Source of the DNA: an uncultured Solibacteraceae bacterium | GTDB lineage: Bacteria > Acidobacteriota > Terriglobia > Bryobacterales > Bryobacteraceae | Length of the DNA: 64,000 nt | Direction of reading: 5' to 3' | Assembly (NCBI GenBank): GCA_963792055.1 | Contig: CAWBUV010000017.1 | Span: 252,283-316,282 of the forward strand | In this document: positions 1 through 64,000 of the stretch, in pieces | How the letters are laid out: every line of letters starts with the position of its first letter | Numbering within the stretch: the first letter of the stretch is position 1 | Position numbers and translations under genes: made by a program | The notes under the pieces: generated by a model | What the model was told of the DNA's origin: nothing | What the model saw: the letters and a program-made list of their open reading frames with translations, nothing else | Database searches by the model: none

Positions 1-316
1 TGGATGTGGCGTGCGTGCCGGGGTAGGCATTGCGTAATTCGAGATTGGTGATGACGGTCAGTTGATCGGCAACCCGGGAGAGCGATTTCAGGGTTGGTGA
101 AAGTTCGCCAAGCGTGCCCGTGCCATTCGGCGTCCATTCCGGCATGTGGGCGCCCATGGGCATGTACACGAAGCCAAGGCGACGGACCGGGCGTGCCGGA
201 GTGGCGGCGAGCGCGGTCATGGACGGAATCATGGCGTCCAGCAGGGGCAGGGCCAGGGTGGTCCCCACGCCGCGGAGAAATGTGCGACGCGGCAGCGCCT
301 TTTTGGTGACGATCAT
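1..316 (-). CDS. DUF1552-family protein, N-terminal fragment (gene continues beyond window start)
   Basis: Minus-strand ATG at 316-314, then my translation MIVTKKALPRRTFLRGVGTTLALPLLDAMIPSMTALAATPARPVRRLGFVYMPMG... This is a twin-arginine-type signal and an N-terminus typical of DUF1552. ATGA start/stop overlap with the upstream DUF1592 gene. Not in the ORF track because it has no stop inside the window. Confidence 0.7.
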   Translation of the reverse strand, partial: MIVTKKALPRRTFLRGVGTTLALPLLDAMIPSMTALAATPARPVRRLGFVYMPMGAHMPEWTPNGTGTLGELSPTLKSLSRVADQLTVITNLELRNAYPGTHATS

Positions 317-2649
317 TGAGACCTCCTCATTTGAAACGGAGTGCTGTTGACGATACCGAGGATAAAGGACGAGAAACGGAAATTATCGGCCTGTGCGCTG
401 CGTACTACGGTGCGCACGGCGGGTGCGTCGTAGGCTTCGACGCCGCGCCCGAGCCCATAGGTCAAGAGCTTTTCGGTGAAGACGCCGGCGAAGACTTCGG
501 GGCGGCTTAAGATCGCGCGCTCCAGACCGGCCACGCCTTCGAACTTGCTGCCATCGGGCAATCCGCCGGAGACATCGATGGGCTTGCCGTCTTCGGCGGT
601 GCGCCAACGGCCTACCGCGTCGTAGTTTTCGAAGGTAAATCCGACGGGGTCCATCAGACGGTGACAGCCAGCGCAGGCCGGGTTCGCGCGATGCTCGGCC
701 ATGCGTTCCCGCATGGAGACCGCGTTACCGGCGGCGGGGCCTTCTTTCAAACTCGGGACGGCGCCGGGCGGTGGAGGCGGAGGCACACCGAGAATGTTGG
801 CGAGGATCCACTTGCCGCGAATCACGGGCGAGGTCCGCGTGGGGTAGGAGGTGACCGTCAGGATGCTGCCCTGGCGAAGGAGACCTCCACGCACCGCGTC
901 CGGCCCAAAAGTGACGCGGCGGAAGCGGCTGCCGTAAACGTTGGGAATTCCGTAGTGTTTGGCGAGGCGCTCGTTGAGGAAGGTGTAGTTGGCCCGGATG
1001 AGGTCGAGGATGCTGCGGTCTTCCCGCATCACGCTATCAAAGAACAGCTCGGTTTCCTGGTGGAAGGCCTGGCGCAGATTGTCGTCGAAATCGGGAAAGG
1101 CGCGCATGTCGGGATGCGAGGCATCGAGATTGCGAAGGTACAGCCACTGGTCGGCGAAGTTGGTGACCAGGGCGCGCGAGCGGGAATCGGCGAGCATCCG
1201 CCGCACCTGCTGCTCGAGCATAGGCGGGTTGTGAAGTTTGCCGCGGGTGGCTGCGTCCAGGAGTTCGTCGTCCGGGAGGCTGCTCCAGAGGAAAAAGGAA
1301 AGGCGCGTGGCGAGTTCGAGATCGCCGACGCGGTAGGCGGACCGGGTGGCAATTCCTGGCGGGTCCTCTTCTACGCGAAAGAGAAATTCGGGACTGACGA
1401 GGATGGAACGAAGGGCCATCTCAATACCGGCTTCGTGGCCGCTTTCGGTGCGCGTGTCGCGGTAGAACTTCATGGGTGCTTTGAGGTCGGCGTCTGTTAC
1501 GGGACGCCGGTAGGCGCGGCGCGCGAGGGTCATCAGAATGCGTTTGGCGCACGCTTCTTCCTCGCCGGGATTTGTGGGAGTACACAGCAGAATACGCTGG
1601 CGGCTTGGACTGTTGCCGGGCCCTTGCGCGTTGTAGGGACCGATCACGGAGATGGAGTAGACGGCGGTCTGGATGCGCGGGTGACGGTCCATATTGAAAT
1701 GGGCCTGGTAGGGCTGGCGCTCGGTTTCGAGCAGAGTGGAGTGCTGCTTTGGAAATGCGGCGGCAATCTGGTGGGGGCCGGACTTCACTGGAATGCGCAC
1801 GTGGACATCCTGATCGACCGCGTGGTGATCGTTGCCTGGCGCGGGTGGCTTGACGGTGAACAGGCCAACGCGCTCGCCATCGAGCAGAAGTTCCACCTGC
1901 TGAGATTCCGTCAGGCCTTCGACGTGTTCGTTGCGGTCGCGCGCCAATCGCACTTGAAGTTCGTAATCGGCATCGAGCGGGAACGTGTAGCGGAGGGAGA
2001 GTCCTCCGCGCGTACCGAGGGGAAGCTGGTCGAAATGCTCCTCCTGGGTGAGGTCCGGCGGGAGGTTGATGGTCTCACCGCCCGGTGATTTTGTGGGGCT
2101 GCCCAGGGCGAGGCGGCTGATTTTGCGGGCGGCGGAAACGTAGCGTTCGAGGAGGGTAGGAGAAAGCTCGCCGACGGTCACGTTGTCGAAACCGTAGCTT
2201 GCATCGTCGCTGGGGAGCAGCGGAGCGGCGTCGATGTCGAGTGCCAGGAGATCTCGGATGGCGTTCTGATATTCGGTGCGGTTGAGACGGCGGAAAGTGT
2301 CGGTGCGACCGGGGTTGGGGTGCAAAGCTGCGGCCTTGTCGAGGGAGGTTTCCAGCTCGGAGATCAGTGCGCGGTAAGTGGCATCGTCCGGGCGAGGCAG
2401 GCCGGCAGGAGGCATAGAGCGGACGCGCAGGCGGCGCACCACCTTCTCCCAGATCTCGGGGTGTGCGGCGGGTTCACCGGCCGCGGCAGCGTCGAGCGCG
2501 AGGCCGCCGGTTTTAAGCTTGCTGTTATGACAGCCGGTACAATATCGATCGAGAGTGGCGCGGGGTTGCTGGGCAATGGCGGAGCCGCAGGCGCCCACGA
2601 GGAGTGCGGTGAGGACACAGCACGGAATCCAATCCCTCCAGCCCTTCAT
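313..2649 (-). CDS. DUF1592/DUF1595/DUF1587/DUF1588/DUF1585-type haem-binding protein
   Basis: Intact 778-aa ORF with an ATG start. It has a signal peptide and two CxxCH motifs (YCTGCHN near the N-terminus, ACAGCHR near the C-terminus). Conserved blocks such as 'RLNRTEYQNAIRDLL' and 'FLFRVE' match the family that is normally paired with DUF1552. Confidence 0.85.
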   Translation of the reverse strand: MKGWRDWIPCCVLTALLVGACGSAIAQQPRATLDRYCTGCHNSKLKTGGLALDAAAAGEPAAHPEIWEKVVRRLRVRSMPPAGLPRPDDATYRALISELETSLDKAAALHPNPGRTDTFRRLNRTEYQNAIRDLLALDIDAAPLLPSDDASYGFDNVTVGELSPTLLERYVSAARKISRLALGSPTKSPGGETINLPPDLTQEEHFDQLPLGTRGGLSLRYTFPLDADYELQVRLARDRNEHVEGLTESQQVELLLDGERVGLFTVKPPAPGNDHHAVDQDVHVRIPVKSGPHQIAAAFPKQHSTLLETERQPYQAHFNMDRHPRIQTAVYSISVIGPYNAQGPGNSPSRQRILLCTPTNPGEEEACAKRILMTLARRAYRRPVTDADLKAPMKFYRDTRTESGHEAGIEMALRSILVSPEFLFRVEEDPPGIATRSAYRVGDLELATRLSFFLWSSLPDDELLDAATRGKLHNPPMLEQQVRRMLADSRSRALVTNFADQWLYLRNLDASHPDMRAFPDFDDNLRQAFHQETELFFDSVMREDRSILDLIRANYTFLNERLAKHYGIPNVYGSRFRRVTFGPDAVRGGLLRQGSILTVTSYPTRTSPVIRGKWILANILGVPPPPPPGAVPSLKEGPAAGNAVSMRERMAEHRANPACAGCHRLMDPVGFTFENYDAVGRWRTAEDGKPIDVSGGLPDGSKFEGVAGLERAILSRPEVFAGVFTEKLLTYGLGRGVEAYDAPAVRTVVRSAQADNFRFSSFILGIVNSTPFQMRRSQ

Positions 2650-3097
2650 GCCCAGTCTCCGTATAACTATGCAACAGTATATATGTGATTCGGGACGCTT
2701 GCATGCCTCTTGCCCAGTACTCCCCTATCGCACCGTTGTAATTCAGTGTTATCCAAGCAGTACAAACGGTTTCGGTCCATTGAGTACTTGCCGCCGGCTC
2801 CAATCCACGGCAAGATTTAGGAATGCCGAATGACGATCGTGAGGCAGAGGATGGACACGCGATGAGTTGCAGAGAACGAGACCACATCATCCTGGCGTTC
2901 GCGCTGGCTGCGAATGAAGGGAATATTGCGTCCGAAGATTTCGAGCTTGCCGCGAGCGAACGCGAACGTCAGCATGCGCAGAAATCCGTGGAGGCAGCGC
3001 GCAGCTATTGCCACCATCTGCGATCGGTGTTTCTGACTCACTGCGAGCAGCACGGGTGCTAAGCAAGGTTCGACGCGTTCCGCACCGTCTTTGGACG

Positions 3098-6000
3098 CTA
3101 ATCGCTATCCAGAGTTGCGCGCAGTAACTTTACCAGATCGCCGACCTGGAAGGGCTTCCTGATAAAGTCCTTGACGATGGAAGCGTCAATGGACTGAGCC
3201 ACCATCTCCCGGCTATAGGCGCTGGTAAGAACCACTTTGACGGATGGCCGGGTACGCTGCGCTTCCCGGATGACCTCGCGGCTCGGTGTTCCCGGAAGGG
3301 TCATGTCCAGCAGGATGATGTCAATTTGCGCCGGGTGATTGCGAAGCAGGTCCACGGCGGCAGACCCGTCGCGCGCACCCACTACACTGAAACCCTTCCT
3401 GGCAAGCATCTTGGAGACGGAAGTACGGAGAGCATCTTCGTCTTCTACCAAAAGTAGAGTGGCGGCCGCACCGTTGATTTCCGAGGCCAAATCAGGCGAC
3501 GTGGGAGCGCTGGGCCTCTCCGGAACATCGGCGCAGGGCAGGAAGATTTGAAAAGTGGAGCCTTGGCCGGGGGTGCTGCTCAGGTGGATGGCGCCAGCGT
3601 GGGCACGGACAATTCCCTGCACAACCGCCAGGCCGAGACCGCGGCCGGCGAACTTGGTAGTGAAGAAGGGGTCAAAGATTCTTGCCTGCTGCTCCTGGCC
3701 GATCCCGCTACCGGTATCCGAAACCGACAAGCAGAGGTAATCGGCATCGGCCAGGTTTGTGCCCGCAAACGCAGGAACGTTCCGCCCTGCGAAGGAGGTA
3801 GCGACGTGGATGAGACCGTCCTTCTCTCCGAGCGCTTCCGAAGCGTTAATGATCAGATTCATTACAATCTGCCGGACCTGTGCGGCATTGCCGCGAACGG
3901 CGGGAAGTCCATTGCGGAGATCGGTTTTCAATATCGCGTGCTTCGAGATGGAGACTTTGAGCAACTCCAGCATCTCTTCCACCAGCCTGGAGAGGTCTAC
4001 CGAGCCGAGATCGGCCTGATCCTGCCCCGAGTAGATCATGAGTTCACGCACGATTTCGGCGGCACGGACGGCTACCGCCTTAATCCTCTGGATATGCTCG
4101 GCCGGAGAGGCACCGCTTGCAGCCTCCAACTCCGCCAGTTCCGCATCCGCCAGGACGCTGCCCAACAGATTGTTAAAGTCATGGGCGATGCCCCTGGTCA
4201 GAGCACCCAAACTCTCCAGCTTTTGTCTTTCCGCGTCCTCCACCTGGGCACGTTTGAGATCCGTGATATCGATATCGGAGCCGATATAGCCGGCGAAGGC
4301 TCCACCCGGGGCGAAGTGAGGCACCCCGCTGCACAACAGCCACCGGTAGGCACCATCGGCACGGCGTATCCGGTATTCGATGTGGAAGTCCAGGCGAGCA
4401 TCAAAGGCCGAACAGTAAGCGGCAAAGCAGCGGTCGGCGTCGTCGGGGTGGATACCCTCGGCCCAGCCGTTGCCCAATTCCTGTTCCAGGGTCCGGCCCG
4501 TGAAGCTCAGCCAGGTCTTGTTGAAAAAGGTGCAGAGCTTGTCGACGCCGGACATCCACATCATTACAGGCGCGGTGTCGGCCAGATTACGGAAGAGTTC
4601 TTCGCTTTCGCGTAGAGCGGTTTCGGCCTGCTTGCGCTCGGTAATATCGAGGCTGACGCCAACCAGGCGAGCGGCTTCGCCGGCCTCGTTGAGCATGACC
4701 GCGGCCTGCGAGAGCGTCCAACGGAGGGTGCCATCGGGCAACACCACACGGAATTCCGTTTCCAGATTTTGCTTTTTGACGACACTCTCCGCCGCGAGCG
4801 CCAGCAGGCGTTTTTTGTCGTCGGGGTGGATCAGTGCAACCCATTCGGCGAATGTCCGGGGGTCGCCCAACGCGGCATTCGGCGGCGACAGCGTGATCGA
4901 CTTCTCCCGCAGATCGCAGTGCCACACCGAGAGGCGCGCGGCGCTTAGCGCTAGTGTCAGGCGCTGCTCACTTTCGCGAAGGGCGCTCTCCACCTGGATG
5001 CGTTCGGTGCTGTCTTCCATCACGCCGATGAAGTATTGCGGCTCGTGATTATGATCGCGCACCAATGAGACATTCACCCGCACCCAGACTGGCGAGCCGT
5101 TCTTGCGGAGGCAGCGTTTCTCTGTGGAGTACGACGTGATTTCGCCGTTCAAAAGTCTCTGAATTGCGTGGACACAGGCCTCGCAGTGATCGGGGTGTGT
5201 GATTTGGAGAAACGTCATCCCGAGCAATTCCGCGCGCGAATATCCGAGGATCTCGCAAATGCGATCGTTCACCAGCCGAAACTGCCCGGAAAGGGTGGCC
5301 TGGGTGATGCCGACCGCTGCCTGAAAAAAAGTGGCCCGGAAGAGCTCCTCACTGTCTCGCAGTGCCAGTTCCGTGTGCCGCCGTTCGGTTGCGAACCCGA
5401 CATGGGTGGCGATGGTTTGAGCGATCTGGAGTTCTTCTGTCCGAAACTCGTGCGGCTGGTTGTAATACAACATCAATTTGCCGATCACTCCGCCGTTTCC
5501 CAACAGGGGGATGAAGGCAAGTGCCCGAATCCCTTCCTTCTCGAGCGCCGGCAGCATCGTGGAGATTGACGGGTCCAGGAGGACGTCCGGAACGGCGATG
5601 GTCCGCGCGTCGGGGGCTCCTCGCCGCCAGGGTGAATGCCCGGTCACCGCCGAGCGGTATTCGTCCGATAACCCGCTCCAGGCCTTGAACCGCATGACGT
5701 CATCGGAGTCGAAGATAAGAACACCGGCGTTGTCGGCGCCCACCGCATGCGTCAATCCTTGCACTGCCGCCAGGTAGATCTCGGCAGGCTGATGAGCAAG
5801 GTTGACCGCCTCTGCGAGGCCGCTCAACACCTGCATCTGTTCCAACTTACTTTGCAGTTCGCGAGCGGCGCGCTTTTGTTCGGTGATGTCCACGGAGATG
5901 CCGAGCATCGTCGCGGGTTCACCTCGATCGTCGCGGGTGACTTTACCTCGCGAGTACAGGAAGTGCACACTGCCGTCGGGCCAGATGACGCGGAACTCGT

Positions 6001-6619
6001 GTGCAAGACTACCCTGCTGCATGCCGTCCCAGAATGCCCTTCTCAAAGCGTCCTGGTCTTCGGGATGGACAAGGGAAAGGACGGAATCTGTCTTGCCGTC
6101 AAAGGTACCCGCCGGCACGCCGTGAAGCGCTTCCAACTCCGGGGACCAGCGGACTCGCCGCGTCTTCAGGTCACATTCCCAAACGCCCATCTTGCCGAAG
6201 GAAAGGGCCAGGCGGAGACGCTCATCAAGATCCCTTGCCTGCTTTCTGGCGGAGGTAATGTCGCGGAGAATGACAAGCACACCAGCGCCTGACGGGTATA
6301 CGTCGGCTTCCAGCCATCGATCGACGCTGGGACAATATTCTTCGCAGTGGCCCCGCTGCGGGCGCTCGGAGGCAACGCGATGCAACTCGGTGTAAAAGGC
6401 ATTCCCGAAGGCATTCGGGAAGATGTCCCAAGTTGACTTACCAATCAGGTCTGACGCCGGACGTCCGGCAAATTGCGCTGCCGCCCGATTTAAATACGTC
6501 ACCCGCCATTCCGCATCGAGGACAACCACGGCGTCGTGGATATTCTCGAGAACCTGCTCGACCGGGATTTCCCTTCCTTCTCCCAAAGGCCAAGTTAGAG
6601 ACTGCTTCGGATTCGGCAT
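3098..6619 (-). CDS. Multi-PAS/GAF sensor hybrid histidine kinase with C-terminal receiver
   Basis: Intact 1173-aa ORF. It has several PAS/PAC-like units separated by 'DIT(E/S)RK'-type boundaries and one GAF-like unit. H-box 'GIAHDFNNLL'; HATPase_c boxes 'NLIINASEAL', 'DTGSGI', 'GRGLGLAVV'. Receiver domain 'LLVEDEDALR...ILLDMTLPG'. Confidence 0.9.
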   Translation of the reverse strand: MPNPKQSLTWPLGEGREIPVEQVLENIHDAVVVLDAEWRVTYLNRAAAQFAGRPASDLIGKSTWDIFPNAFGNAFYTELHRVASERPQRGHCEEYCPSVDRWLEADVYPSGAGVLVILRDITSARKQARDLDERLRLALSFGKMGVWECDLKTRRVRWSPELEALHGVPAGTFDGKTDSVLSLVHPEDQDALRRAFWDGMQQGSLAHEFRVIWPDGSVHFLYSRGKVTRDDRGEPATMLGISVDITEQKRAARELQSKLEQMQVLSGLAEAVNLAHQPAEIYLAAVQGLTHAVGADNAGVLIFDSDDVMRFKAWSGLSDEYRSAVTGHSPWRRGAPDARTIAVPDVLLDPSISTMLPALEKEGIRALAFIPLLGNGGVIGKLMLYYNQPHEFRTEELQIAQTIATHVGFATERRHTELALRDSEELFRATFFQAAVGITQATLSGQFRLVNDRICEILGYSRAELLGMTFLQITHPDHCEACVHAIQRLLNGEITSYSTEKRCLRKNGSPVWVRVNVSLVRDHNHEPQYFIGVMEDSTERIQVESALRESEQRLTLALSAARLSVWHCDLREKSITLSPPNAALGDPRTFAEWVALIHPDDKKRLLALAAESVVKKQNLETEFRVVLPDGTLRWTLSQAAVMLNEAGEAARLVGVSLDITERKQAETALRESEELFRNLADTAPVMMWMSGVDKLCTFFNKTWLSFTGRTLEQELGNGWAEGIHPDDADRCFAAYCSAFDARLDFHIEYRIRRADGAYRWLLCSGVPHFAPGGAFAGYIGSDIDITDLKRAQVEDAERQKLESLGALTRGIAHDFNNLLGSVLADAELAELEAASGASPAEHIQRIKAVAVRAAEIVRELMIYSGQDQADLGSVDLSRLVEEMLELLKVSISKHAILKTDLRNGLPAVRGNAAQVRQIVMNLIINASEALGEKDGLIHVATSFAGRNVPAFAGTNLADADYLCLSVSDTGSGIGQEQQARIFDPFFTTKFAGRGLGLAVVQGIVRAHAGAIHLSSTPGQGSTFQIFLPCADVPERPSAPTSPDLASEINGAAATLLLVEDEDALRTSVSKMLARKGFSVVGARDGSAAVDLLRNHPAQIDIILLDMTLPGTPSREVIREAQRTRPSVKVVLTSAYSREMVAQSIDASIVKDFIRKPFQVGDLVKLLRATLDSD

Positions 6620-6870
6620 TTCCGTTACGTGCGTTTCTGACGCGAGCCCTCACGGGCGGTATGCCTATCCTACCAAGCGTTCTGCATGGCGGGTTAACGG
6701 GCGGTTGTTTTGCGGCGGTTCGGTACCATCCGGCAGTACTTTCGGCACGGCAGCCAAACTGTGCCGAGGAATTTCGCAAAAAGTACCGTGACTTCGTGTA
6801 CCGCGGAAGTACCGCGAGGACTTACACATACAGGCCTCGTTAGTGCATGCTCTTAGCAGAGAAGGTACAG

Positions 6871-7512
6871 ATGAAGCCCGAAACCGATTACTACGAAATC
6901 CTGCAAATCAGCCGCCACGCGGACGTTGAAACCATTCATCGGGTTTTCCGCATTATGGCCACACGGTTTCATCCGGACAACCCCCGCACCGGGGATACGG
7001 AGACCTTCCTCCATCTGCAACGTGCTTACCAGGTGCTCTCGGATCCGGAGCAGCGCGCCAGGTACGACAGCAGCCGAGTGATCGAGGAAGAGTCGCCCCT
7101 GCCGATATTCGAGCTCAAGGATTTTGTCTACGGACTCAAAGGAGAAGTGAACCGGCGGCTGGGGGTGTTGTCTCTTCTCTATAATCGACGACGGGCCAAC
7201 GAAGACAATCCGGGGCTATCGGTGCTGGATCTGGAAAAGCGGATGGCTTTTCCACGTGAGCATCTGAACTTTGCCTTGTGGTATCTGAAAGCAAAAGGAT
7301 ACGTCCGACAGGAAGATAACTCCGATTGTGGAATTACCGCGGAAGGCATCGATTTTATCGAGACTCACTCGTCGAGCGACGATCTGGTGAAGCGGCTGAT
7401 CCACGCCGGTCCCACCGCGGGGGCGCAGTTCACGGATGGGAATGAGACGAGTTCAGGACAGGCGGGGGATACGGCGGAGTTGCAGTCTGCGCGATTAGCA
7501 TTGGCCTCTTAA
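6871..7512 (+). CDS. J-domain (DnaJ-like) protein with winged-helix-like C-terminal half
   Basis: J-domain with HPD motif: 'DYYEILQISRHAD...RFHPDNPRTGD...LQRAYQVLSDPEQRARYD'. GAGAAGG lies 6 nt before ATG 6871; the ORF-track start 6847 is also possible. The C-terminal segment 'LSVLDLEKRMAFPREHLNFALWYLKAKGYVRQ' looks wHTH-like. Confidence 0.8.
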   Translation: MKPETDYYEILQISRHADVETIHRVFRIMATRFHPDNPRTGDTETFLHLQRAYQVLSDPEQRARYDSSRVIEEESPLPIFELKDFVYGLKGEVNRRLGVLSLLYNRRRANEDNPGLSVLDLEKRMAFPREHLNFALWYLKAKGYVRQEDNSDCGITAEGIDFIETHSSSDDLVKRLIHAGPTAGAQFTDGNETSSGQAGDTAELQSARLALAS

Positions 7513-7524
7513 GTTCACAGTTCT

Positions 7525-7812
7525 ATGGCGTGGAAGTCCAATTGCTTAATTGGCTCTGTGCGAAGATTAGCTCATCATCTGCAGAACATACTGCTTGCCG
7601 GAGCCCTCCTCAGCCCGGCAATCTTTTCCGGCTGTGCCGTTCGTGCACGTTATTACGATCCCGTGCACTCCGATTATCACCGCTGGGGGCCTGCCGAACG
7701 GGAACCCTATGCTCGATGGGAAGTTGAAGGCCATCGTCCGCATTCCGACTATAAGAAGTTAAGAAAAGAAGATCGCCAAGCCTACTGGAACTGGCGTCAC
7801 GATCACCATTAA
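7525..7812 (+). CDS. Small putative lipoprotein, His/Tyr/Trp-rich
   Basis: 95-aa ORF. The hydrophobic N-terminus ends in a lipobox-like 'IFSGC'. The tail is YYDPVHSDYHRW...YWNWRHDHH. No family recognised. Confidence 0.45.
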   Translation: MAWKSNCLIGSVRRLAHHLQNILLAGALLSPAIFSGCAVRARYYDPVHSDYHRWGPAEREPYARWEVEGHRPHSDYKKLRKEDRQAYWNWRHDHH

Positions 7813-8019
7813 ATATTGGGCGAGGGGCGAAACGTCGATTCCTTCTCTCCAGATGGACTCCAAGATCTGACGGATCGCCCACTGGTCCGTGATGAGCGGC
7901 CAGACGGCGATCCACCTACTGGGGCGGAATCGCTGCCATACGCTGCTCGTCGGCGATGAGTTCCGGGCGCGATGCCACTCGCGAAACGGACTCATCAGAA
8001 GCTGCAAGGGCCGCTTACC

Positions 8020-10686
8020 TTAATTCCTCCGCCCTGCCAGCCGGCGATCCAGTTCCTCCCCGAAGTTCAGCAGAAACGTCGCATGCACCGTGCTGCTCTG
8101 CGGCGAGACGTCGCCGGGTGCAACGCCGGTCAACACCCGCTTGCCGTCTGGCGCAAGTTCGAATGTAGCGCGCCCGATGTTGGAGGCAATTCTTGTCTCG
8201 CTCCAAAGCCGCGGCCTTCCTGCGGAAAACACGCCACCTTTGATCTGATAGTCCACCGCCATGATATGGCCATCATCGGTCGCATAGAGGATCTGTTGCG
8301 CGGACGGCGACCACCGGGGATGGTATCCGCTGCCGCCTGAAATTTGCGAACGTGTGCCCGGTCCGGGGAATGGTCTTACATAGGCTTCCCATGCTCCGCT
8401 GTCGTTGGACGCGTAGGCAACCCATTGGCCATCTGGCGAAAAGGTGACATGGGTTTCTGTGCCGGGCGTCTGCAGGAAAGGCTCCGCAGCGCCGGGTTTG
8501 GGGTTTTCGGGATCGCTCTTGTCGATCGGCAGCGTCCAGATGTCCTCCATGCTTCCCGCCGTCGAGATCTGCGTATAGCCGATCCGGCGCCCATCCGGTG
8601 AAATAGACGAGGGTATGATTGGAAGCTTGGCCTCCAGTAGTGTACGCACCTGCCCACCGCCGTCAAAGCGCGCCCACGATAGCCCATAACCATCTTTCAC
8701 CAGCGATCGGAACGCCAAATGCCGCGAGTCGGGTGCCCACACCGGATAAGAGTGCCCGCGACCGTCGGTAGTCACCGAGACAAGCATTTCTCGTGTTGTA
8801 TCCCACACTTTGATGTCGCTGGTATCGATTCCGCCGGACGTGAAGGCGACAAGTTTTCCGTCCGGGGAGATTGAACTATCGGAGGTGCCTCCTGGAAAAG
8901 GCAAGGGGCTGACATCCCCTTTAGCGTCCAACCAAACCAGACGCGCGCTTACCTCGGCCGCGTTTCCACTCATGTAAGCGAACAGCAGCCCGCTCACAGA
9001 GGTCCCACCAAAGCTGTACCGCCCCGCGGCGCTGATTACGTTAGCGGCGACGTTCTCTAAAACGCGAACAGGCTGACCCTTCTCCTCCAACCGATCCGGG
9101 TCGAAAGCGGTCGCAAAGAGGACACCATCGTGGACGTACAGGAGCTTGCCCGGCGCGAGGTAGCGGCTAGCGAAGCCGCCGCGATGCACAGCCTTGATCT
9201 TCCCGCCACTAGCGTCGAGAACGTCGATTTCGGAATCGTTGAGTCCCCAGGTGGCCTTGTTCGCAGTGAAGAGAACGGCGCGGCTGCCCGGTAGCACAGC
9301 GGGCCAACGGTGCGTCGCTTGACCAGTCGATGTCGGGTTTGTCAGCGTCTGCACCGTCCCACCATTTTCGGAGACTCGCGACAGAGGGCCTGCCGGATTC
9401 CCGGCGAACACGATTTGGCCATCGTCGCCCCACGACCCACCGCGCGGATTGGCGCTGACATCGGCGAGCGCGATCGGAGCGCCGCCGTGGACCGAGACCT
9501 TCTTCAACTTTCCATCGGCAAAGAATCCGATCCACTCGCCACTCGGCGAAAAGAACGGCTCCTGGCCACCTTCTGTACCTCTCAGAAGATCCGCCCTTTG
9601 TTGATCCAGCGCGCGCAGTTCGAGGGTCGATTTTCCTTCCGCCGAGCGCGCCGTAAACACGAATCGGCGGGCGTCGGGCGAAATCGCGATCACGTCCAGC
9701 GCCGCTGCCACCGCCTCAGGCCCGAGGTCCACGCTGAATTGCATGAATGGCCGGTCGGCCGCGCCCGACGTTCTCCATGCGACTATTCCAGCTGCCGCTG
9801 CGGCCGTGGCCGCAATCATCGTCGCCGCGATCCAAGGCCAAACGCGGCGCGTCATGACTGGCACTGCTGCCGCCGCGGGCATCTCATCCAGCAACAGGCG
9901 CGCACCCGAAATATCGCGGAGCCGCGCACGAGGGTCGCGCGTCAGGCACAGACGCAGAAGCTTGCGAAAGCGGGCGGGGACAGGGCTCATGTCCGGATCC
10001 TGCCGCAACACAGACGCCAGCACATCGCTAACCGACTCACCGTCGAATAGAGCCTTGCCCGTCAGCAACTCGTACACCACGACGCCGAAGCTCCAGATAT
10101 CCGCGCGCTTATCGACATTTTGCCCGCGCGCTTGTTCGGGCGCCATGTACGCAGCCGTGCCCATGATCACGCCCGCCATCGTCGCGCGCATCGTAAGCGT
10201 GGGCAAATCGGCGCGGTCAGACGCGTTTACGGCGTCGGACGACAATGCCTTGGCCAGGCCAAAATCGAGCACCTTCACGCGCCCCTCCGGGGTGAGCTTG
10301 ATGTTCGCCGGCTTGAGGTCGCGATGGACGATGCCCTTTTCGTGCGCGTACTCGAGCGCATCGATCAACTGGTGAACAATGGGCAACGCTTCTTCCTCCG
10401 TCAGCGGGCCGGAAAGCGTCGAGCCTCCAACTAACTCCATCACCAGCGCACGCTCTTCGACTCCATGAATGACTGCGATGTTCGGGTGATTGAGTGACGC
10501 AAGCACTTGCGCCTCACGGCTGAATCGAGCGAGACGATCGGGGTCCTTGGCGAAAACGTCGGGCAGAACCTTAATGGCGACCTCGCGCTGGAGCTTGGTG
10601 TCGGTCGCACGATAGACCGCACCCATGCCGCCTTCGCCCAGCTTGCCGGAGATGCGATAGTGAGCGATGGAACTGATCGGACTCAT
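8020..10686 (-). CDS. Ser/Thr protein kinase fused to TolB-like (PD40) beta-propeller
   Basis: Intact 888-aa ORF. Hanks motifs GEGGMGAVYRA, AIK, HRDLKPANI, DFGLAK, APE. One TM segment (WIAATMIAATAAAAAGIVAW). Repeated 'SPDG...' propeller blades follow. Confidence 0.9.
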   Translation of the reverse strand: MSPISSIAHYRISGKLGEGGMGAVYRATDTKLQREVAIKVLPDVFAKDPDRLARFSREAQVLASLNHPNIAVIHGVEERALVMELVGGSTLSGPLTEEEALPIVHQLIDALEYAHEKGIVHRDLKPANIKLTPEGRVKVLDFGLAKALSSDAVNASDRADLPTLTMRATMAGVIMGTAAYMAPEQARGQNVDKRADIWSFGVVVYELLTGKALFDGESVSDVLASVLRQDPDMSPVPARFRKLLRLCLTRDPRARLRDISGARLLLDEMPAAAAVPVMTRRVWPWIAATMIAATAAAAAGIVAWRTSGAADRPFMQFSVDLGPEAVAAALDVIAISPDARRFVFTARSAEGKSTLELRALDQQRADLLRGTEGGQEPFFSPSGEWIGFFADGKLKKVSVHGGAPIALADVSANPRGGSWGDDGQIVFAGNPAGPLSRVSENGGTVQTLTNPTSTGQATHRWPAVLPGSRAVLFTANKATWGLNDSEIDVLDASGGKIKAVHRGGFASRYLAPGKLLYVHDGVLFATAFDPDRLEEKGQPVRVLENVAANVISAAGRYSFGGTSVSGLLFAYMSGNAAEVSARLVWLDAKGDVSPLPFPGGTSDSSISPDGKLVAFTSGGIDTSDIKVWDTTREMLVSVTTDGRGHSYPVWAPDSRHLAFRSLVKDGYGLSWARFDGGGQVRTLLEAKLPIIPSSISPDGRRIGYTQISTAGSMEDIWTLPIDKSDPENPKPGAAEPFLQTPGTETHVTFSPDGQWVAYASNDSGAWEAYVRPFPGPGTRSQISGGSGYHPRWSPSAQQILYATDDGHIMAVDYQIKGGVFSAGRPRLWSETRIASNIGRATFELAPDGKRVLTGVAPGDVSPQSSTVHATFLLNFGEELDRRLAGRRN

Positions 10687-54961: not shown

Positions 54962-54962
54962 T

Positions 54963-55356: not shown

Positions 55357-55994
55357 TTACGACGATTCCAGGCACTCCGCGATTTCCTTCTCCGCAATCG
55401 CGCCGCCTTGATGACGCGCCAATACGGCTCGGTGATATCGATGGTAGTCGCGCCCTCGCCCGCGCAATGCCCGCCATCCAGCACCAGGTCCACACGGCCG
55501 TCCATCATGCCGAACACATCGATGCCGCTGTGGCACGTGGGATGTCCCGAAATATTGGCGCTCGTCGAAATCAATGGCTGGTCCAACAGCGCGATCAGCC
55601 TCGTTGCCGTCTCCGAGCGCGAATGGCGTAGCGCCAGGCGTCCCGTATTGCCGGTCACCTTGAGGGGAATCTTCGCCGCCGCCGGCACGATCATCGTCAG
55701 CGGCCCTGGCCAGAACCGCCGCGCCAGGATGAAAAAGCGCGCCGTCAGTTCGCTCGCCAGTTCCTCCGCCATCATCGTGTCGCGGATGAGGATGGGCAGC
55801 GCGCGGCTGGATTCGCGCCCCTTGGCGTGAAACACGCCGGTGACGGCGCGCAGGTTGTAGGGGTCGGCCACCAGGATGTACAGCGCGTCGGTGGGGATCG
55901 CCACCACCTTTCCGCGGCGCACGGCGGCGGCGGCTCGCTCCAGCGCTTCCGGCTGGGGATCCTGGGGATCGATTTCGACCAGGTCGGTTGCCAT
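55357..55994 (-). pseudogene. tsaC: L-threonylcarbamoyladenylate synthase (YrdC/TsaC domain); one frame change near the 3' end
   Basis: 'VVAIPTDALYILVADP', 'RFWPGPLTMIVP' and 'ISTSANISGHP' are in the 55994 frame. The family-typical end 'GAIAEKEIAECLESS*' is in ORF 55357..56073. One base added within aaggcggcgcg (about 55401-55410) joins them. Confidence 0.8.
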
Positions 55995-56020: not shown

Positions 56021-57887
56021 TTAGCGGGCTTCGATGGCCTCGGCAACGTCGATTGCCATCTGATAACGGCCAAACGGGGCGCTAAGTTGCACGCCCTGCA
56101 CCATCTTACTCACCCGGAAAACCATTTCCCGCGCGATCGCGACGCCTTCCTCGCGGGCCTTCTCGGCGTTATCCACCCGCCGCATACGTTCCATGAACAC
56201 ATCCGGCACCGGCACGCGCAGTTCGTTGACCATGAACTCCGCGTTGCGGAAGCTGGTGAGCGGCCAGATGCCGCAAAGAACCGGAATCTTGACGTGCTCG
56301 ATGCGCTTCAGAAACGCCTCCAGCAGATCCAGATCGAAGACCGGCTGGGTCACCACGTACTCCGCGCCCGCCTCCACCTTCCATTCGAAGCGGCGAATTT
56401 CCTCATCCATATTCAACGCGCCCGGGTTGGCGCCGACGCCGATCAATAGCGCCGTCTGCGACCCCATCGGATTGCCGCCGATATCCAGGCCGTGATTCAG
56501 ATTGCGCACGATATTCACCAGCCCGATGGCGTCCACATCGAACACCGCGGTGGCATCCGGGTACGCACCCATGCGCGGCGGATCGCCCGTGATGCAGATC
56601 AGGTTGCGCACGCCCAGGCTGTGCGCCCCCAGCAGTTCGCTCTGTATGCCGAGAATGTTCCGGTCGCGGCAGCAGAAGTGGTTGACCGCTTCGATGCCCG
56701 CCTGTTCCTGGATCAACTGGCAGGTGACCTGTGCGCTCATGCGCGCGCTGGCGCGCGGGCCGTCGGGAACATTGATCGCGTCGATGCCATGGTCGGCGCA
56801 CAGTTTCGCGCCCGCGATCTCGCGCGTCGCATCCACGCCGCGCGGCGGCAGAATCTCGACAAAGGAGACGAACTGCCCGGCCGCCAGTTTGGCGCCGACC
56901 TTGGATTTCTCGGCCACCGGAACCGGCGTGAGCGCCTGCGCCTTGACCTTCGGCTCTTCCACCGTCACCGCCAGCTTCTTCTGCAGCGGCTGCAGCGACC
57001 GGGTCTCCGAGCGGATCAGCTTGATGTGGTCCGGCGTGGTGCCGCAGCAGCCGCCGATCACCTTGACGCCCGCCCACAGCAGCCGGCGCGCGTATTGCGA
57101 CATGTACTCCGGCGAGCAGAGGTAAATGTTGCGGCCTTCCACCCGCATCGGCAGCCCGGCGTTGGGCATCGCGCTCAGCGGTTTGGTGGCATGCTCCATC
57201 ATGCGCTCGACGGTTTCGAGCGTCGCCTTGGGACCCACCGAGCAATTCAGGCCGATCGCATCCACCGGCCACGTATTCATTTCGCGCGTGAAGGTCTCGG
57301 TATCGGTGCCGCCCGGCAGATGGCCGAAATCGTCGATGGTCACCTGCGCGATCATCGGAATTTCGCCGCCCGCGGCTTCGTGCGCCGGCCATGACCGCTT
57401 CGCGCAGTTCGTCCAGATTGCCGAAGGTCTCGAAGATCAGCAGGTCGACACCGGCCTCCAGCAGGGCATCGATCTGTTCGCGGAACGCGGCGCGCGCCTC
57501 CGCGAAGGAAGTGGGGCCCAGCGGCTCGATGCGGACGTTGAGCGGTCCCACGGCGCCGGCCACAAACGCGCCATTGGCCGCTTCGCGCGCCAGCCGGACC
57601 CCGGCCAGGTTGATGGCGTGCAGCTTTTCCGCAAAGCCGAACGCTCCCAAACGTTGCCGGGTGGCGCCGAACGTGTTGGTCTCCAGGATCTCGGCGCCCG
57701 CCTTCGCGTATTCCTGATGGATCTGGCGAACCATGTCGGGCGACGAGAGGTTCAACTCGTCGAAGCAGCGATTGATGAACACGCCGCGCGAGTAAAGCAT
57801 GGTACCCATCGCGCCATCGGCCACGATCACGCGGCTCGCCAGTTGGTCACGGAATTCCTGGGCGCGGGTACGGATAGATGTAGTCAT
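56021..57887 (-). pseudogene. Bifunctional homocysteine S-methyltransferase / 5,10-methylenetetrahydrofolate reductase (YitJ-like); one frame change
   Basis: The N-terminal Hcy-binding domain 'VIVADGAMGTMLY...ILETNTFGA' is in ORF 56403..57902 (ATG 57887). From about 57380 the product continues in ORF 56021..57355 ('GLNCSVGP', 'GGCCGTTPDHI'), then the MTHFR domain ('FVSFVEILPPRG...ICITGDPP'). Confidence 0.85.
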
Positions 57888-57995
57888 GAGTGACGGTCGC
57901 AAATGCCGTTCGCAATGCGCGAAATGCGATAGTTTTCAGTTTAACGCACGTGGACTCCACGGCGCTCATCCACCTGATACCATGTGCATCAAACC

Positions 57996-59476
57996 ATGCG
58001 ACGTCGTGATCTTCTCCGTACCTGCGCGGCCGCTCCCCTCGCGCTTGCCGCCGGCAACCGCGCCTTCGGCCAGAATCGCTATCAGCCCACCTGGGAATCC
58101 ATCGACCAGCGCCCCAGCCCCGCCTGGTACACCGATTCCAAGTTCGGCATCTTCATTCACTGGGGCGTCTACTCCGTCCCCTCGTATGCCCCCGTCAAGT
58201 CCAAGGGCGAAACCATGTACGCCGAGTGGTATTGGAACTCGCTCAACAAGCCGAATTCCTCCACCCGCAAGTTCCATGATCGCAACTACGGCGCCAACTT
58301 CCCCTACTTCGATTTCGCTCCCATGTTCCGCGCCGAACTCTACAATCCGGACCACTGGGCCGACGTCTTCACCCGCTCCGGCGCGAAGTACGTCGCTCTC
58401 ACCTCCAAGCATCACGAGGGCTTCACCCTATGGCGCAACGAGCAGGCCAACAAGACCTGGGGACGCCCGTGGAACGCGGTGGATATCGGACCAAAACGCG
58501 ACATTGCGCTGGACCTGATGGAGGCCGGCCGCCGGCGCGGGCTGCACATGGGAATCTACTACTCGCTCTACGAGTGGTACAACCCGCTCTGGCTGTCCGA
58601 CAAGAAACGCTACGTGGCGGAGCACATGTTCCCGCAGTTCAAGGACGCCGTCACGCATCTCAAGCCGAGCATCATCTTCTCGGACGGCGAATGGGAGCTG
58701 ACCAGCGCCGAATGGCGCTCGCCCGAGCTGCTGGCGTGGCTCTTCAACGAATCGCCGGTGCGCGACGAAGTCGTGATCGACGACCGCTGGGGCAAGGACA
58801 CCCGCCACAAACACGGCGGTTACTACACCACCGAGTACACGTCCGGCATGCAGCAGGCGGCTCACCCCTGGGAAGAGAGCCGCGGCATGGGCTATTCCTA
58901 CGGATACAACCGCATGGAGACGCTGGCCGATTACCACAGCGACCGCGAACTGCTCATGATGCTGCTCGACATCGTGGCGCGCGGCGGCAATCTGCTGCTC
59001 GATATCGGACCCACCGGCGACGGACGCATCCCCGTCGTGATGGAAGAGCGCCTCATCCAGATCGGCGACTTCCTCGCGCCCCAACGGCGAAGCCATCTAC
59101 GGCACTCACGCGCGCCACACGCCGCGCCAGTGGAGTAAGGGCGCCATCCCCAAGCTCGAAGAGAAGGAGTTCATGTCGGACTACGACATCACCAAACTGG
59201 TGGATACTCCGCCCGCGGGCTACGCTCGCGTAGACGCCTTCTACACGGCGAAGAACGACGCGGTCTACGCAATTCTGCCGCGCCGCCCCGTCCGCGAAGT
59301 CGTGCTCGACGATATCGATGCTCCCTCGGGCGTGCGCGTCACCCTACTCGAAGGCGGCCAGCAGTTGGAATCCACGCGTCAGGGCAGGCAATTGCAAATC
59401 CGCATCCCCGACGCAGTATCGGCCAGCGTTACCGGCACGCCAGGCATACGTCTTGAAGCTCGCCGGCGCCAAGTAA
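57996..59476 (+). pseudogene. GH29 alpha-L-fucosidase with twin-arginine leader; 2 frame changes
   Basis: 'MRRRDLLRTCAAAPLALAAG', 'KFGIFIHWGVYSVP' and 'HHEGFTLW' are in ORF 57984..59138. After the CCCC run at 59079-59082 the expected 'NGEAIYGTH...' is in the frame of ORF 59173..59508. The end 'LPARQAYVLKLAGAK*' (TAA 59474-59476) is in a third frame. Confidence 0.85.
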
Positions 59477-59619
59477 GCGCATGTGGGGCAGGTTGGCAAC
59501 CTGCGTGACCGATTGCGCAACGGTCCGAGGCGTTCGTCCGTCCCCTTACGCCACGTCCGCCTGAACTTCCGGCAGATTCGCCGCGGGAGCCGTGAACGTG
59601 TAAAGCACGTCCGGCGTGA

Positions 59620-60033
59620 GCCTTCCGCGAACGGCGGCGCTCGCGCAAGCCCAGACGATGCATGATGCGTCCCGCATGATCCGGATCGTAGCGCACGCCG
59701 AACTGCGTGAAAATCACCTCGGCGAAGCGGGCCGTGGTCCAGCGGTCGGTGTCGAAGCCGGACGCGCGCGGTCCCGCCTGATAGATGTCGGTGAGGACTT
59801 TGAGTTGATCCGCGGTCAAGCGGCTGGGACGGCCCGGTGCGCGCCGTTTGCGGAGCGACTCGACGCCTTTTCCGCTCAAGCGTACGGTTCCACCGGGAAG
59901 CCGTAGTGCGGCTGACACCGAATTTTCGGGCGATTTGGGACTGCGAGAGCCCCGTTTGCAGGTCCTGTGCGGCTAACAGGCGCCTGCTCTCCATTTCATC
60001 GCGACTCAGAAGACTTTGTGCGGCTGTGTCCAT
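59620..60033 (-). mobile_element. IS630-family transposase remnant (N-terminal HTH part only, frame-shifted, no DDE domain)
   Basis: 'MESRRLLAAQDLQTGLSQSQIARKFGVSRTTASRWNRTL' (ORF 59344..60033) is followed by 'GVESLRKRRAPGRPSRLTADQLKVLTDIYQAGPRASGFDTDRWTTARFAEVIFTQFGVRYDPDHAGRIMHRLG' (ORF 59379..59918). There is no room for a catalytic domain before the fucosidase 3' end at 59476. Confidence 0.65.
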
Positions 60034-60264
60034 AGTCTCGCGCGGTTGTTTGAGTTACCAGAGCGTTTCCAGAATATCAGAAAACATTTGCAATGCAAAT
60101 TGTTTTTTGAACCTGGTGTCCGCGTACCCTCCGCATGTCGGAAGCGATGCAGGAATCGGCGCTGGGGCGCTATGATCCGAAGGTACATGGATTCCGAACT
60201 GTGTCACAGCGTACCGGCCGCGGCACGACTGCTGAGGCATCCAGCGTGCATCGCGAAGAGTGTA

Positions 60265-62029
60265 ATGCTTCGTCTGACCGTCTTCTCCCTGGCAATCTGT
60301 GTGTCTGGCAGCGCCCAGTTTTCCGGTCTTGCCACGCCTGCCGACGGCTCACGGGTTTACTTTGCCACGGTGCTGCGGCAAAAGAACACGACCCAACCCG
60401 CTTATGGCAAGCTCTTCTCCGTCGATTCCGCGGGACTGAAACTGTTCCTTTCCCGCGACGCGCAGATTCCCACTCCGCCTCCTCCGGGCACGTTCCCCAT
60501 CCCGCTGACAAACGCATACAACTTGAAAGCCGCGAGCATTTCCTCCGATAGCAAAGTCTTTGCAGCCGTGGGGATTCGATACTGTGACGGCCCGGGCGAA
60601 TTCTGCACCAGACAGGAGTCCTACGTCACCACCATCACCGCCGCGGGCCAGGAGAAGGACTACCCCGGCGATCTGCGCCTCAGCGCGGGCGGCACTTGGG
60701 CGTTCGGAGTGAGCAGCGTGGCGCCTACAGGTATTTTCACGGGGTACCTGGTGAATGTCGCCACGGCCCAACAAACGGCCTTGGGCACGGTCTTCGGACG
60801 CTTACAGGTCACGTCCGCCGGGCGGCCGGTAGCGGATGACGGTACCGCGGTATATTCGGACTTCTCGTCGGTGGCGGTGGTCCACGGCACCGAAACGCGC
60901 CACATCACTCCGGGCGACATCACTCCGGGCAACGCCTTCCCCGATGGACGCGGTGATCGACCGGGCGGGCGCCACAATCGTCTTCGCGGTCTGCGCGTCG
61001 AATGCCTGCTCGCTGCGCCTGGCGGACGCCGCCGGCTCTGGGAGCAGCCTCCTGTTTGCGGATGGTTTCGCGCCTTCACTCTCCGACGATGGCAAGACGC
61101 TGCTCTACCTCTCAACCCGCACCGGTTCTACCCAGATGCGCGTCGCCAACCTGAATGGCGGCGTCACCCTCGACCGGCAACTCGGATTCGAGGTCGGCGG
61201 TATCGCGCAGGCGACCCTCTCGGGTGACGGTTCCACCGTTTACGCAGTCACCAAAAATGGCCGGCTGGAGAAGATCTCGGTGGCCACGCGCGCGGTGCAG
61301 GAACTGATTCCGCGCACGGCACATTGGGAGTCCGCCAGCACATTGGCGCCGGGCAAACTCGTGGCGTTCGCAGGGGGCGGGCTGACCGACCTGCCATTCA
61401 CCGCCACTCCGCCACTGCCGGAAAATCTCAATGGCATCTCCGTAACCATTCAGGGCATGAAGGCGCGGATCCTCAGCGTGGCGCCGGACGCCATCATGGC
61501 GGTGGTTCCACCGGACGTGACCCCTCGGCGGACTCAGGCATCACCAGCCCGTTGGAGATCGCGCTTGCGTCGCCATCGCCATTCGACGACGCGCCGCGCG
61601 GCGCCCTGAACATTGCGCCATTCGCGCCGGAGTTCGTCACCGGCGGGGCAAACTGCTGATTGCCGCTCACCAGGATTGGAGCGGCCTGGTCACCGTGGAT
61701 AATCCGGCGCGTCCCGGTGAGGCGTTCACGCGTACGGGCTGGGTCTCGGGCCCACCAGTCCAGCCGTACCGTACGGTAGCGCCGCGCCCGCGCAGGAGCC
61801 GTTCGCGCGCCTTACCACGCCGTTTGGTTGCGCCGCGTCGAACGACGCCTCCAGGCCCGTAGAGATTTTCTTCCAGGGACTGGCGCCGAACCTTACGGCC
61901 GTCTATCAATTCGATTTCCGCATACCAGTGAACACGCCCAACGGCAATTTCGTCCTGTACTGCGTACTAGGAGGAGTCGGGAGCGGCGGCCCGAGTATCT
62001 TCGCGAATGTGCCGGTGGCGGCACAATAG
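60265..62029 (+). pseudogene. Secreted protein with 'Solibacter uncharacterized C-terminal domain'-like end; at least 4 frame changes
   Basis: Signal peptide MLRLTVFSLAICVSGSAQ (ATG 60265). Pieces are in ORFs 60016, 60836 and 61324 and in unlisted frames. C-terminal blocks by my translation: 'LNGISVTIQGMKARILSVAPDAIMAVVPPDV', 'AAHQDWSGLVTVDNPARPGEAFT', 'FFQGLAPNLTAVYQFDFRIPVNTPNGNFVLYCVLGG...VPVAAQ*' (TAG 62027-62029). Confidence 0.65.
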
Positions 62030-62058
62030 GCCAGGCACATCTCATAGAATGAGGTCAG

Positions 62059-62754
62059 ATGCCCTCACCCCGCCTGGAACTCCGCGGCGTATCCAAAACA
62101 TATTCCAACGGAGAGCAGCCTCTCGAGGTGCTGCACGGCGTCTCGCTGGCGGCCGAAGCCGGCACGGTCACCGCGCTGCTGGGCCGCAGCGGCTGCGGCA
62201 AGACCACCCTGCTGAACCTGGCCGGCGCCATGGACTTTCCCTACCGACGGCGAAGTGCGCATCGACGGCCGCGCCACCACCGCGCTCTCGGAGAACGAAC
62301 TGACCGCCCTGCGCCGCAAGCGCGTCGGCTTCGTCTTCCAGTTCTTCCAACTGCTGCCCACCCTCACCGTACTCGAAAACGTCGAACTGCCGCTGCTGCT
62401 GGCCGGCGCCGCCAATACCGCCGAGGCCGCGCGCGAACGGCTGCGCTGGGTGGGCCTCGAAGAGAAGGCAGCGAGCATGCCCTACCAGCTTTCCGGCGGC
62501 CAGATGCAGCGCGTCGCCATCGCCCGCGCGCTGGTGCATTCGCCCGACCTCCTGATGGCCGACGAACCCACCGGCAACCTGGACACCGCCAGCGGCGACC
62601 AGGTGCTGGCGCTCCTCCGCGAGGCCGCCACCCGCTTCGGCGCCACCGTCCTGATGGCCACGCACAGCGCCGAAGCCGCCGCCATCGCCGACGTGCGTGT
62701 CCGCCTGCGCGACGGCCGCATTCAAGGCATCGACGGCGCCACCGACCGCCATGA
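62059..62754 (+). pseudogene. ABC transporter ATP-binding protein (MacB/LolD-like); 2 frame changes
   Basis: GAGG lies 4 nt before the ATG. Walker A 'GRSGCGKTTLLNL' is in the 62059 frame. Q-loop to H-loop ('FVFQFFQLLP', '[15 protein letters not shown]', '[12 protein letters not shown]', 'MATH') is in ORF 62255..63013. The only stop forming an ATGA junction with the permease (62751-62754) is back in the first frame. Confidence 0.8.
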
Positions 62755-64000
62755 AACTGCTGCGCACCCTGATCCTGCGCCCGCTGCGCCGCGACCTGCT
62801 GCGCACCGCGCTCACCATCCTCTCGGTGGCGCTGGGCGTCGCGGTGGTGGTGGCCATCGACCTGGCCGGCGAGCCGCCACCGGCTGCTTCCGTTCCTCGA
62901 TGCAGACGCTCGCCGGCAAGACGGATCTGGAGATCGTCGCCAACGGCGGCATCGACGAGAGCTGGATGGCACGCCTGGCCGCGCTGCCGTTCGACGCGCA
63001 CTTGCGCCGCTGATGGAAGCGCAGGTCGTCCTGCCCGGAATCGGCGCCGTGCCGCTCTACGGCGCAGATCTCGCCGGCGCGCCCGAGGGCGCTGTCGTCT
63101 CCAAGTCGCTCGCCGCACGCCTCCACTCGAGATACCGTCACCGGCACCCTCGCTGGCCGCCCCCTCACCGTCCCCATCGGTGCAAACCGCTCGATTCCGG
63201 CGGCGAGTTCCTGGTGCTCGACATCGCCGAAGCGCAGCAGGCGCTCGCCGCTACGGCAAGCTGGACCGCATCGACGTCACGTGGGCCCGGGGAGGATTTC
63301 GCGCGCGTCGAGAAGGCCATCCGCGGCGCCCTGCCCGCCGTCCATCCGCGTGGAAAAACCCGGCGACGCGCAGCGAAGAGAACCAGCGCATGCTGCGCGC
63401 CTTCCGCTGGAATCTGCGCGTGCTCAGCTACATCTCGCTGGTGGTGGGCGCGTTCCTGATCTACAACACCATCTCGGTGAGCGTGGTGCGGCGGCGCGCC
63501 GAAATCGGCATTCTGCGCGCCCTGGGCGCCGGCGCGCGCCGCCATTCTCGGACTGTTCCTGGGCGAAGCGCTGCTCTTCGGCCTGGCCGGCGCCGCGCTC
63601 GGGGTGTTGCTGGGCCGCTTGCTGGCCGGCGGCGCCGTGCGGCCTGATCGCCGGCACGGTGAACGCGCTCTACACCACCAGCCGTCCCGCGCCCGTCGCG
63701 CTGACCGCTAGCCGAAGCCTGGACGGGCATTCTCGCCGGGCACTGCGTCGCCTTCGCTCAGCGCGTTCGGCTCCGGCGCGCGAAGCCATGCGAGTCGCGC
63801 CCACGAGGCCATGAGCCGCGGCGCGCACGAGCACCACGCGCGGCTGCGCTGGCGGCGCGGCCTGGCATGGTCCGCCCTGCTGCGCCGCGCTCGCGCTGGC
63901 CGCTTCGCAGGCCGGCCCGGTGGCGGGTACCCCTGGGCGGATACGCCGCCGCGCTGCTGGCCATCGGCGCCGCGGCCATGGCCGCGCCCGCGGTGGTCTG
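62751..64000 (+). pseudogene. FtsX/MacB-type ABC permease, 5' part (runs off window); several frame changes
   Basis: 'MKLLRTLILRPLRRDLLRTALTILSVALGVAVVVAIDLAG' is followed by periplasmic-domain pieces. The FtsX core 'RMLRAFRWNLRVLSYISLVVGAFLIYNTISVSVVRRRAEIGILRALGA' is in ORF 62697..63647. Other pieces are in 63013.. and 63281.. frames. Confidence 0.75.

Follow-up and report, generated by a model that had tools for sequence, protein, structure and literature searches.

Frame-broken genes beside intact blocks in a 64-kb contig segment of an uncultured Solibacteraceae bacterium: probable residual errors of long-read metagenome assembly

Errors left in long-read assemblies can pseudogenise genes (PMC12007338), and the Microflora Danica study of long-read metagenome-assembled genomes (MAGs), whose catalogue was assembled by Flye (--meta --nano-hq) and polished once with Medaka, reported low coding density in low-coverage MAGs (PMC12313526). 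Apparent frameshifts can also arise from merged alleles, as in a diploid eukaryote where they vanished once the haplotypes had been resolved (PMC8445201), and a large frameshifted fraction beside intact neighbours is a feature of pseudogene-rich genomes, such as those of Mycobacterium leprae and of recently host-restricted pathogens and symbionts. Here, we analysed a stretch of 64,000 nucleotides (hereafter the window) from the assembly GCA_963792055.1 of an uncultured Solibacteraceae bacterium (contig CAWBUV010000017.1, positions 252,283 to 316,282), in which about 24 of ~43 genes are frame-broken beside long intact stretches. We propose, with a probability of roughly 90%, that these breaks are residual long-read metagenome assembly errors and not mutations in the organism, in which the underlying genes are almost certainly intact. 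The window presents a familiar type of problem whose error signature is atypical, and no biological feature.

As in the long-read (Nanopore/PacBio) insertion and deletion (indel) artefacts already described, open reading frames (ORFs) of the window are split into adjacent pieces that match consecutive parts of a protein family (PMC12007338), and the breaks are unevenly distributed by region and absent from near-identical contigs of JGI and Logan metagenomes. Unlike the usual homopolymer deletions of long reads, window insertions outnumber deletions by about 5:1, avoid run extension and often split doublets, at a rate that is piecewise constant over blocks of 5–11 kb. The window shares with pseudogene-rich genomes its large frameshifted fraction beside intact neighbours, but real pseudogenes carry nonsense mutations and larger deletions, neither of which was seen here, and relaxed substitution patterns, of which the genes of the second error block show no sign. 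It resembles collapsed-haplotype artefacts (PMC8445201) in its apparent frameshifts and in one deletion that falls on a polymorphic site, and differs from them in that its insertions show no third-position preference.

The extent of the breakage was established with Pfam searches against stop-to-stop ORF pieces, consecutive parts of one model in different frames being scored as a break, and with DNA alignments to syntenic relatives. An initial annotation made from the letters alone had counted 22 of 41 loci as broken in a patchwork of damaged and pristine genes; this picture was borne out, with indels far more numerous than a reading by eye could reveal. The intact tracts it had named (10.3 kb at 3098-13452, accBC and the Hsp90 cassette) fell within the uninterrupted stretches delimited here, i.e. 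313-13452, 39753-45094, 47163-48884 and 49983-54961. A 3-periodic Markov frame model of the window detected numerous same-strand frame switches; it performed well for isolated frameshifts, missed compensating pairs, and scored the anti-sigma gene (~14 indels/kb, the most densely damaged gene of the window) as non-coding. In the ~37 kb that were compared with relatives, we counted 125 small window-specific indels (103 insertions and 22 deletions) common to no relative, many of them forming compensating pairs; this total covers 13450-26950, the AsnB region, 28.6-39.75 kb and 45.2-55.9 kb. The GC content of the window is ~62%, and the genomes nearest to it are MAGs of Acidobacteriota (Bryobacterales/Terriglobia), many of them from the Microflora Danica long-read catalogue and bearing Flye-style 'contig_N' names.

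Comparators were recruited with repaired genes as queries. The repaired acyl-CoA dehydratase activase retrieved intact proteins with 94-95% identity, encoded at loci L082 and L083, which were dropped as wide comparators, their synteny being restricted to the activase pair; over that pair no frame-changing indel separates L082 from L083, where the window has a dozen. The repaired TonB-type receptor retrieved two syntenic ENA contigs, L084 and L085, which cover window positions 345-7512 and 13450-26950 at 85-89% nucleotide identity, and a third search yielded L086, syntenic over 22308-42484, together with L087. For 43.8-55.9 kb, near-identical contigs were available from Logan (L001, 99.6%) and JGI (L089, 98.75%; L088, 96.5%; L090, 96.8%), which served simply as other assemblies, whatever their sequencing technology. 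Over 13450-26950, 80 insertions (72 of one base, 8 of two) and 14 one-base deletions occur in the window but in neither L084 nor L085, which have 7 and 6 frame-changing indels of their own, respectively. The comparison with close relatives that the initial annotation had called for found these indels private to the window.

All eight window indels in 45.2-55.9 kb (46060, 46282, 49110, 49600, 49884, 50003/50009 and 55404) are absent from the near-identical contigs, each site being confirmed by 2-3 independent contigs in which the genes are full length. Where L085 was the comparator, the window was projected onto its reading frame, whereby the insertions dropped out, and the seven genes repaired in this way (~3,900 codons) contained no internal stop codon and encoded proteins with 82-97% amino-acid identity to L085, near the value of L084. 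Some 85 frameshifts accompanied by zero nonsense codons are unlike decay. Most window-specific substitutions affected the third position of codons, with 192 of 270 doing so in the activase pair and 373 of 561 in region A; in the genes of the second error block, with 143 third-position substitutions and 35 at the other two positions together, the window behaves like its relatives. In these alignments, the substitution pattern shows apparent purifying selection acting on broken and intact genes alike. The first error block has a surplus of substitutions at codon positions 1 and 2 (153 vs 66 in L084), which is confined to the most indel-dense genes; as this surplus tracks indel density, it may stem from substitution errors of raw reads or from alignments that go wrong beside indels.

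The indels themselves ignore coding constraints. Insertions are uniformly distributed over the three codon junctions (23, 19 and 25), and intergenic or overlapping segments hold 14 indels in ~1.1-1.5 kb, a density similar to that of coding sequence (~7/kb). Bacterial mutation is biased towards deletion, opposite to the ~5:1 excess of insertions in the window. The preference of the initial annotation for assembly error over pseudogenes is strongly supported by the comparators, the repaired frames, the substitution pattern and the indel phase. Its caution that the intactness of any single gene is weak evidence for selection is turned round, as it is brokenness that says nothing on selection here.

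In sister long-read assemblies, errors of this type hit different genes, the essential accC among them. The PAS kinase gene, with 0 indels in the window, has ~9 in L084, where it is split into at least three ORFs (L084 15827-21230); accC, also with 0 indels in the window, has five in L086 and is split into two ORFs (L086 18910-21416), and all four single-base insertions that break it are of the form GcG or CgC. L087 carries 13 insertions and 6 deletions. Among the lineage-specific insertions of L084, L086 and L087, 13 of 29 have a doublet-splitting context, and the contexts (AgA, GcG, CgC) match those of the window. Naming suggests that these sister assemblies and the window share a pipeline.

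The errors are arranged in blocks, and the blocks with their genes are given below (window positions, strand in brackets).

313..13452, pristine block: PSD-domain protein, PAS histidine kinase, DnaJ-domain protein and two Ser/Thr kinase-PD40 genes; full-length ORFs with complete Pfam architecture; 0 small indels/kb at 2.1-6.6 kb, with no coding indel in the window at 2142-6640 against L084 and L085; no frameshift at 7.5-13.45 kb, as judged by the two full-length kinase ORFs.
13450..21000, error block 1: 9.3 small indels/kb from 13.45 to 21 kb (60 insertions, 12 deletions) in a three-way alignment with L084 and L085; TonB-type receptor, anti-sigma, sigma, GT2 and a small Lys-rich ORF.
13780..16835 (-), CarboxypepD_reg/OMP_b-brl_4 TonB-type receptor: 24 insertions, 2 deletions; ~1007 amino acids (aa) in relatives.
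16925..18625 (-), zf-HC2 anti-sigma factor: 22 insertions, 1 deletion; 556 aa in L085.
18618..19335 (-), ECF sigma-70 factor: regions r2 and r4 in different frames; one deletion at 18845.
19446..20586 (+), GT2 glycosyltransferase: 6 insertions, 3 deletions.
20531 (-), conserved Lys-rich ORF of 61-62 aa: single-base deletion adjoining a T5 run (A5 on the minus strand).
21000..28600, error block 2: 3.4 small indels/kb (24 insertions, 2 deletions); activase pair, GT4 and AsnB.
21073..25390 (+), acyl-CoA dehydratase activase (two BcrAD domains and DUF2229, 1024-1029 aa) followed by a 397-aa DUF2229 gene: 13 insertions and 2 deletions over the pair.
25486..26657 (-), GT4 glycosyltransferase: 4 insertions; 402 aa in L085.
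26615..28564 (-), AsnB-type asparagine synthase: single-base insertions at 26822, 26835, 27200, 27402, 27890 and 27916; 644 aa in L085.
28600..39750, error block 3: 1.7 small indels/kb from 28.6 to 39.75 kb, by three-way alignment with L086 and L087, pairwise alignment with L086 and Pfam splits; function-unassigned genes at 28.8-36.4 kb, GDSL lipase, DUF362 and a 410-aa gene.
39753..45248, pristine block: 381-aa gene, accC, accB, ABC ATPase and its ABC-2 permease, with complete Pfam domains; 0 small indels/kb at 39.75-45.2 kb, and no window gap against L090 in 43762-45084.
45.2-55.9 kb, low-rate block: 0.75 small indels/kb.
46282 (-), GT4 (364 aa in L088 and L090): broken by a single-base insertion.
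49110 (-), DUF2304 (120 aa in L088 and L090): broken by a single-base insertion.
49600..49884 (-), GT2 (251 aa in L090): broken by two single-base insertions, at 49600 and 49884.
55404..55405 (-), 3' end of tsaC (Sua5/YciO/YrdC domain): single-base deletion; tsaC frame fused to crcB.
~55.4 kb to the window end: frames broken again; the right end is the highest in GC (70-73%).
56024..57935 (-), S-methyltransferase and MTHFR gene: split near 57383 (frame model).
57978..59505 (+), GH29 alpha-L-fucosidase: one base too many, at or adjoining the C4 run 59079-59082.
59977..64000 (+), PD40-repeat gene and MacB-like ABC ATPase/FtsX permease pair: several frame changes, at approximate sites.

The Pfam matches illustrate how thoroughly single families are scattered. 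In the receptor (13780-16829, -), OMP_b-brl_4 model positions 2-79, 351-441, 535-565, 594-638 and 685-830 lie in five different ORFs, while the relatives P0122 and P0125 are intact and the repaired window copy has no stop codons. The AsnB gene is separated into GATase_7, Asn_synthase 2-149 and Asn_synthase 198-298, and split models also occur in the GDSL lipase, DUF362, DUF2304, GH29, the BcrAD/DUF2229 activase, two GT4 and two GT2 genes. At the right end, positions 1-159 and 162-281 of the S-methyl_trans model are in different frames, ABC_tran 1-30 of the MacB-like ATPase is split from 37-136, and the frame model places changes in the PD40-repeat gene and MacB-like pair at ~60945, 62245, 62747, 62873, 62997, 63353 and 63537.

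Within blocks, indel counts are near-Poisson (variance/mean 1.1-1.3). Most of the errors would be spurious single-base insertions, scattered without regard to reading frame or to whether the sequence is coding or intergenic, and grouped in blocks several kilobases long, within each of which the rate is roughly constant. These blocks would most probably reflect an effective read depth that shifts in steps from one part of the contig to the next, as such steps would yield a stepwise-constant rate over segments of 5-11 kb; where the consensus came from one or a few reads, polishing would have been unable to clear the raw-read errors. With an estimated total of ~0.9% indels and at most ~2% substitutions, block 1 would resemble a barely polished single read.

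Several points weigh against residual assembly error caused by low depth. The verdict was drawn from assembled sequences, and not from read depth or per-site read support; the platform and pipeline of the window itself are read from its relatives; and 55.9-64 kb was judged by the frame model and protein-level matches instead of DNA alignment. At both edges of the error zone (~13.45 and ~39.75 kb), the window also departs structurally from its relatives, a coincidence that could point to strain mixing or to a chimeric or graph path rather than to depth alone. Finally, the insertion bias and the doublet-splitting context depart from the usual description of Nanopore homopolymer deletions.

Among the alternatives, the one that survives best, although we regard it as rather unlikely, is a collapsed-strain consensus, in which co-occurring strains were piled up and the polisher either kept both alleles of a single-nucleotide polymorphism, producing an insertion, or dropped the site, producing a deletion. 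The breaks would still be artefacts, but from microdiversity instead of low depth, and microdiversity was named as a problem by the Microflora Danica paper (PMC12313526). Many insertions do look like a base followed by its alternative allele, 70 of 94 matching neither neighbour; the deletion in tsaC falls on a site (55404) that is A in L001 and G in both L089 and L090; and the error-rich zone is flanked by strain-specific structural differences. However, polymorphisms at third positions would predict few insertions at the junction of positions 1 and 2, where 19 were observed vs 23 and 25 at the others, and the extra substitutions of block 1 are spread over all codon positions, as raw error predicts. 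Because third codon positions are not preferred, allele merging is not the main source of the insertions, and the retention of both alleles was rejected as main cause by this uniform codon phase.

Far less probable are classical homopolymer length miscalls concentrated at high GC, the mechanism favoured by the initial annotation. Nanopore consensus errors are usually described as homopolymer deletions. Such error would mostly delete bases and change the length of runs, but the window has 103 insertions vs 22 deletions. Only 8 of its 94 single-base insertions lie within runs of at least three bases; run-extending insertions are rarer than expected (24 vs 43 +/- 5), those that match neither neighbour commoner (70 vs a null of ~50.5 +/- 5), as are those that split a doublet (GG to GCG, CC to CGC, AA to AGA; 33 vs 17 +/- 3.7), with GcG (12) and CgC (7) as top contexts. 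The inserted bases (C 31, G 29, A 20, T 14) are near the base composition and without strand bias; a strand-specific insertion of purines, hinted at by the first 12 events, was contradicted by the full set.

The three homopolymer repairs proposed by the initial annotation fared differently. Removal of one C from the CCCC run at 59079-59082 gives a GH29 product that aligns unbroken to the human fucosidase 7pls through '...NGEAIYG...', and the Lys-rich ORF near 20530 does lack one base, at 20531 beside the T5 run, so that two of the three repair sites touch runs. Near 55405, one base is indeed absent from tsaC relative to L001, L089 and L090, but the missing base lies outside a homopolymer. As for the claim that broken genes sit in the most GC-rich stretches, tabulation of the indels against run length and local GC left a weak overall trend: indel sites are slightly GC-richer (0.640 vs 0.616), and GC correlates with indels in 500-nt bins (Spearman rho 0.39). 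This trend is absent inside the three main error blocks (rho 0.02-0.20, not significant), persists weakly in the low-rate 45.2-55.9 kb block (rho 0.36, p 0.018), and does not account for bins of block 1 at 57-60% GC that still have 7-9 indels/kb when bins at 64-66% GC elsewhere have 0-3.

Least credible of all is a genuine and very recent pseudogenisation of the surface-polysaccharide and receptor region in this strain, since, although the indels stand in the deposited sequence, which was judged as an assembly and not from reads, and although a receptor, a sigma/anti-sigma pair and glycosyltransferases are of kinds often dispensable, the ~85 frame-changing indels came with no nonsense codon, with mainly third-position substitutions, uniform phase, equal intergenic and coding density and a bias contrary to bacterial mutation, essential or core genes (tsaC and the methionine-synthase-like gene) were also struck, near-identical strains have intact genes wherever a check was possible, and sister assemblies are broken elsewhere. 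On a reading that is very unlikely, some of the indels are real: a 25-kb receptor and exopolysaccharide region of a soil strain would be decaying by an unusual mutational process of +1 doublet-splitting insertions, and the other assemblies would represent strains not yet decayed.

Further observations concern the genes themselves. At 8020-13452, two divergently oriented Ser/Thr kinase-PD40 beta-propeller paralogues (888 and 865 aa) occupy the place that PhoD and other genes have in L084 and L085; the error-dense block starts exactly at the end of this strain-specific insertion. Paralogues of the kinase-PD40 family abound in Acidobacteriota (577 related stretches, none above 50% identity). An exact-protein look-up with the kinase at 10855-13452 gave no match, and a scan of genome contigs with it, which returned only paralogues at no more than 50% identity and no synteny, was set aside as a source of comparators and served for taxonomy and a few reference ORFs. 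The Lys-rich ORF (~20450-20640, -) lies directly upstream of the activase pair in three relatives despite differing neighbourhoods, and is called in L082 (9346-9531), L083 (4738-4923) and L084 (6320-6508). Beside the AsnB/GT4 cluster, ~7.6 kb of genes (28810-36400, +) have no Pfam match; one of them belongs to a family of 27 database proteins, ~1000 aa at full length, all hypothetical and from acidobacterial or unlabelled metagenome records.

Plus-strand GC skew is +0.1 to +0.25 across 13450-36000, whatever the gene orientation, and the cumulative skew climbs to ~54 kb, then drops. Skew as a footprint of the errors was rejected, and the positive skew is intrinsic, since the orthologous activase genes of relatives have a like skew (0.10-0.175). 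At 51171-54961, a gene for an 879-aa Hsp90-like protein and an overlapping 384-aa gene (no Pfam match) show 100% protein identity in several unrelated metagenomes, and the genes flanking this pair differ by 1-4% in the same JGI/Logan metagenomes. The neighbouring crcB (55005-55319) has seven window-unique substitutions in 315 nt; as six of the seven are at third positions, sequencing error was rejected for them, and the cluster more likely reflects natural variation between strains or a short tract of recombination.

For users of MAGs, these results call for caution, as about half of the genes in a 64-kb public contig are mis-called as fragments, and local error reaches up to ~1% indels over 7.5 kb in a region adjoining error-free blocks. 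Left in place, such errors would make pseudogenes seem too numerous, divide protein families, reduce coding density and distort any inference of selection or gene loss. Most of them would escape tools for polishing or frameshift repair that are tuned to homopolymers.

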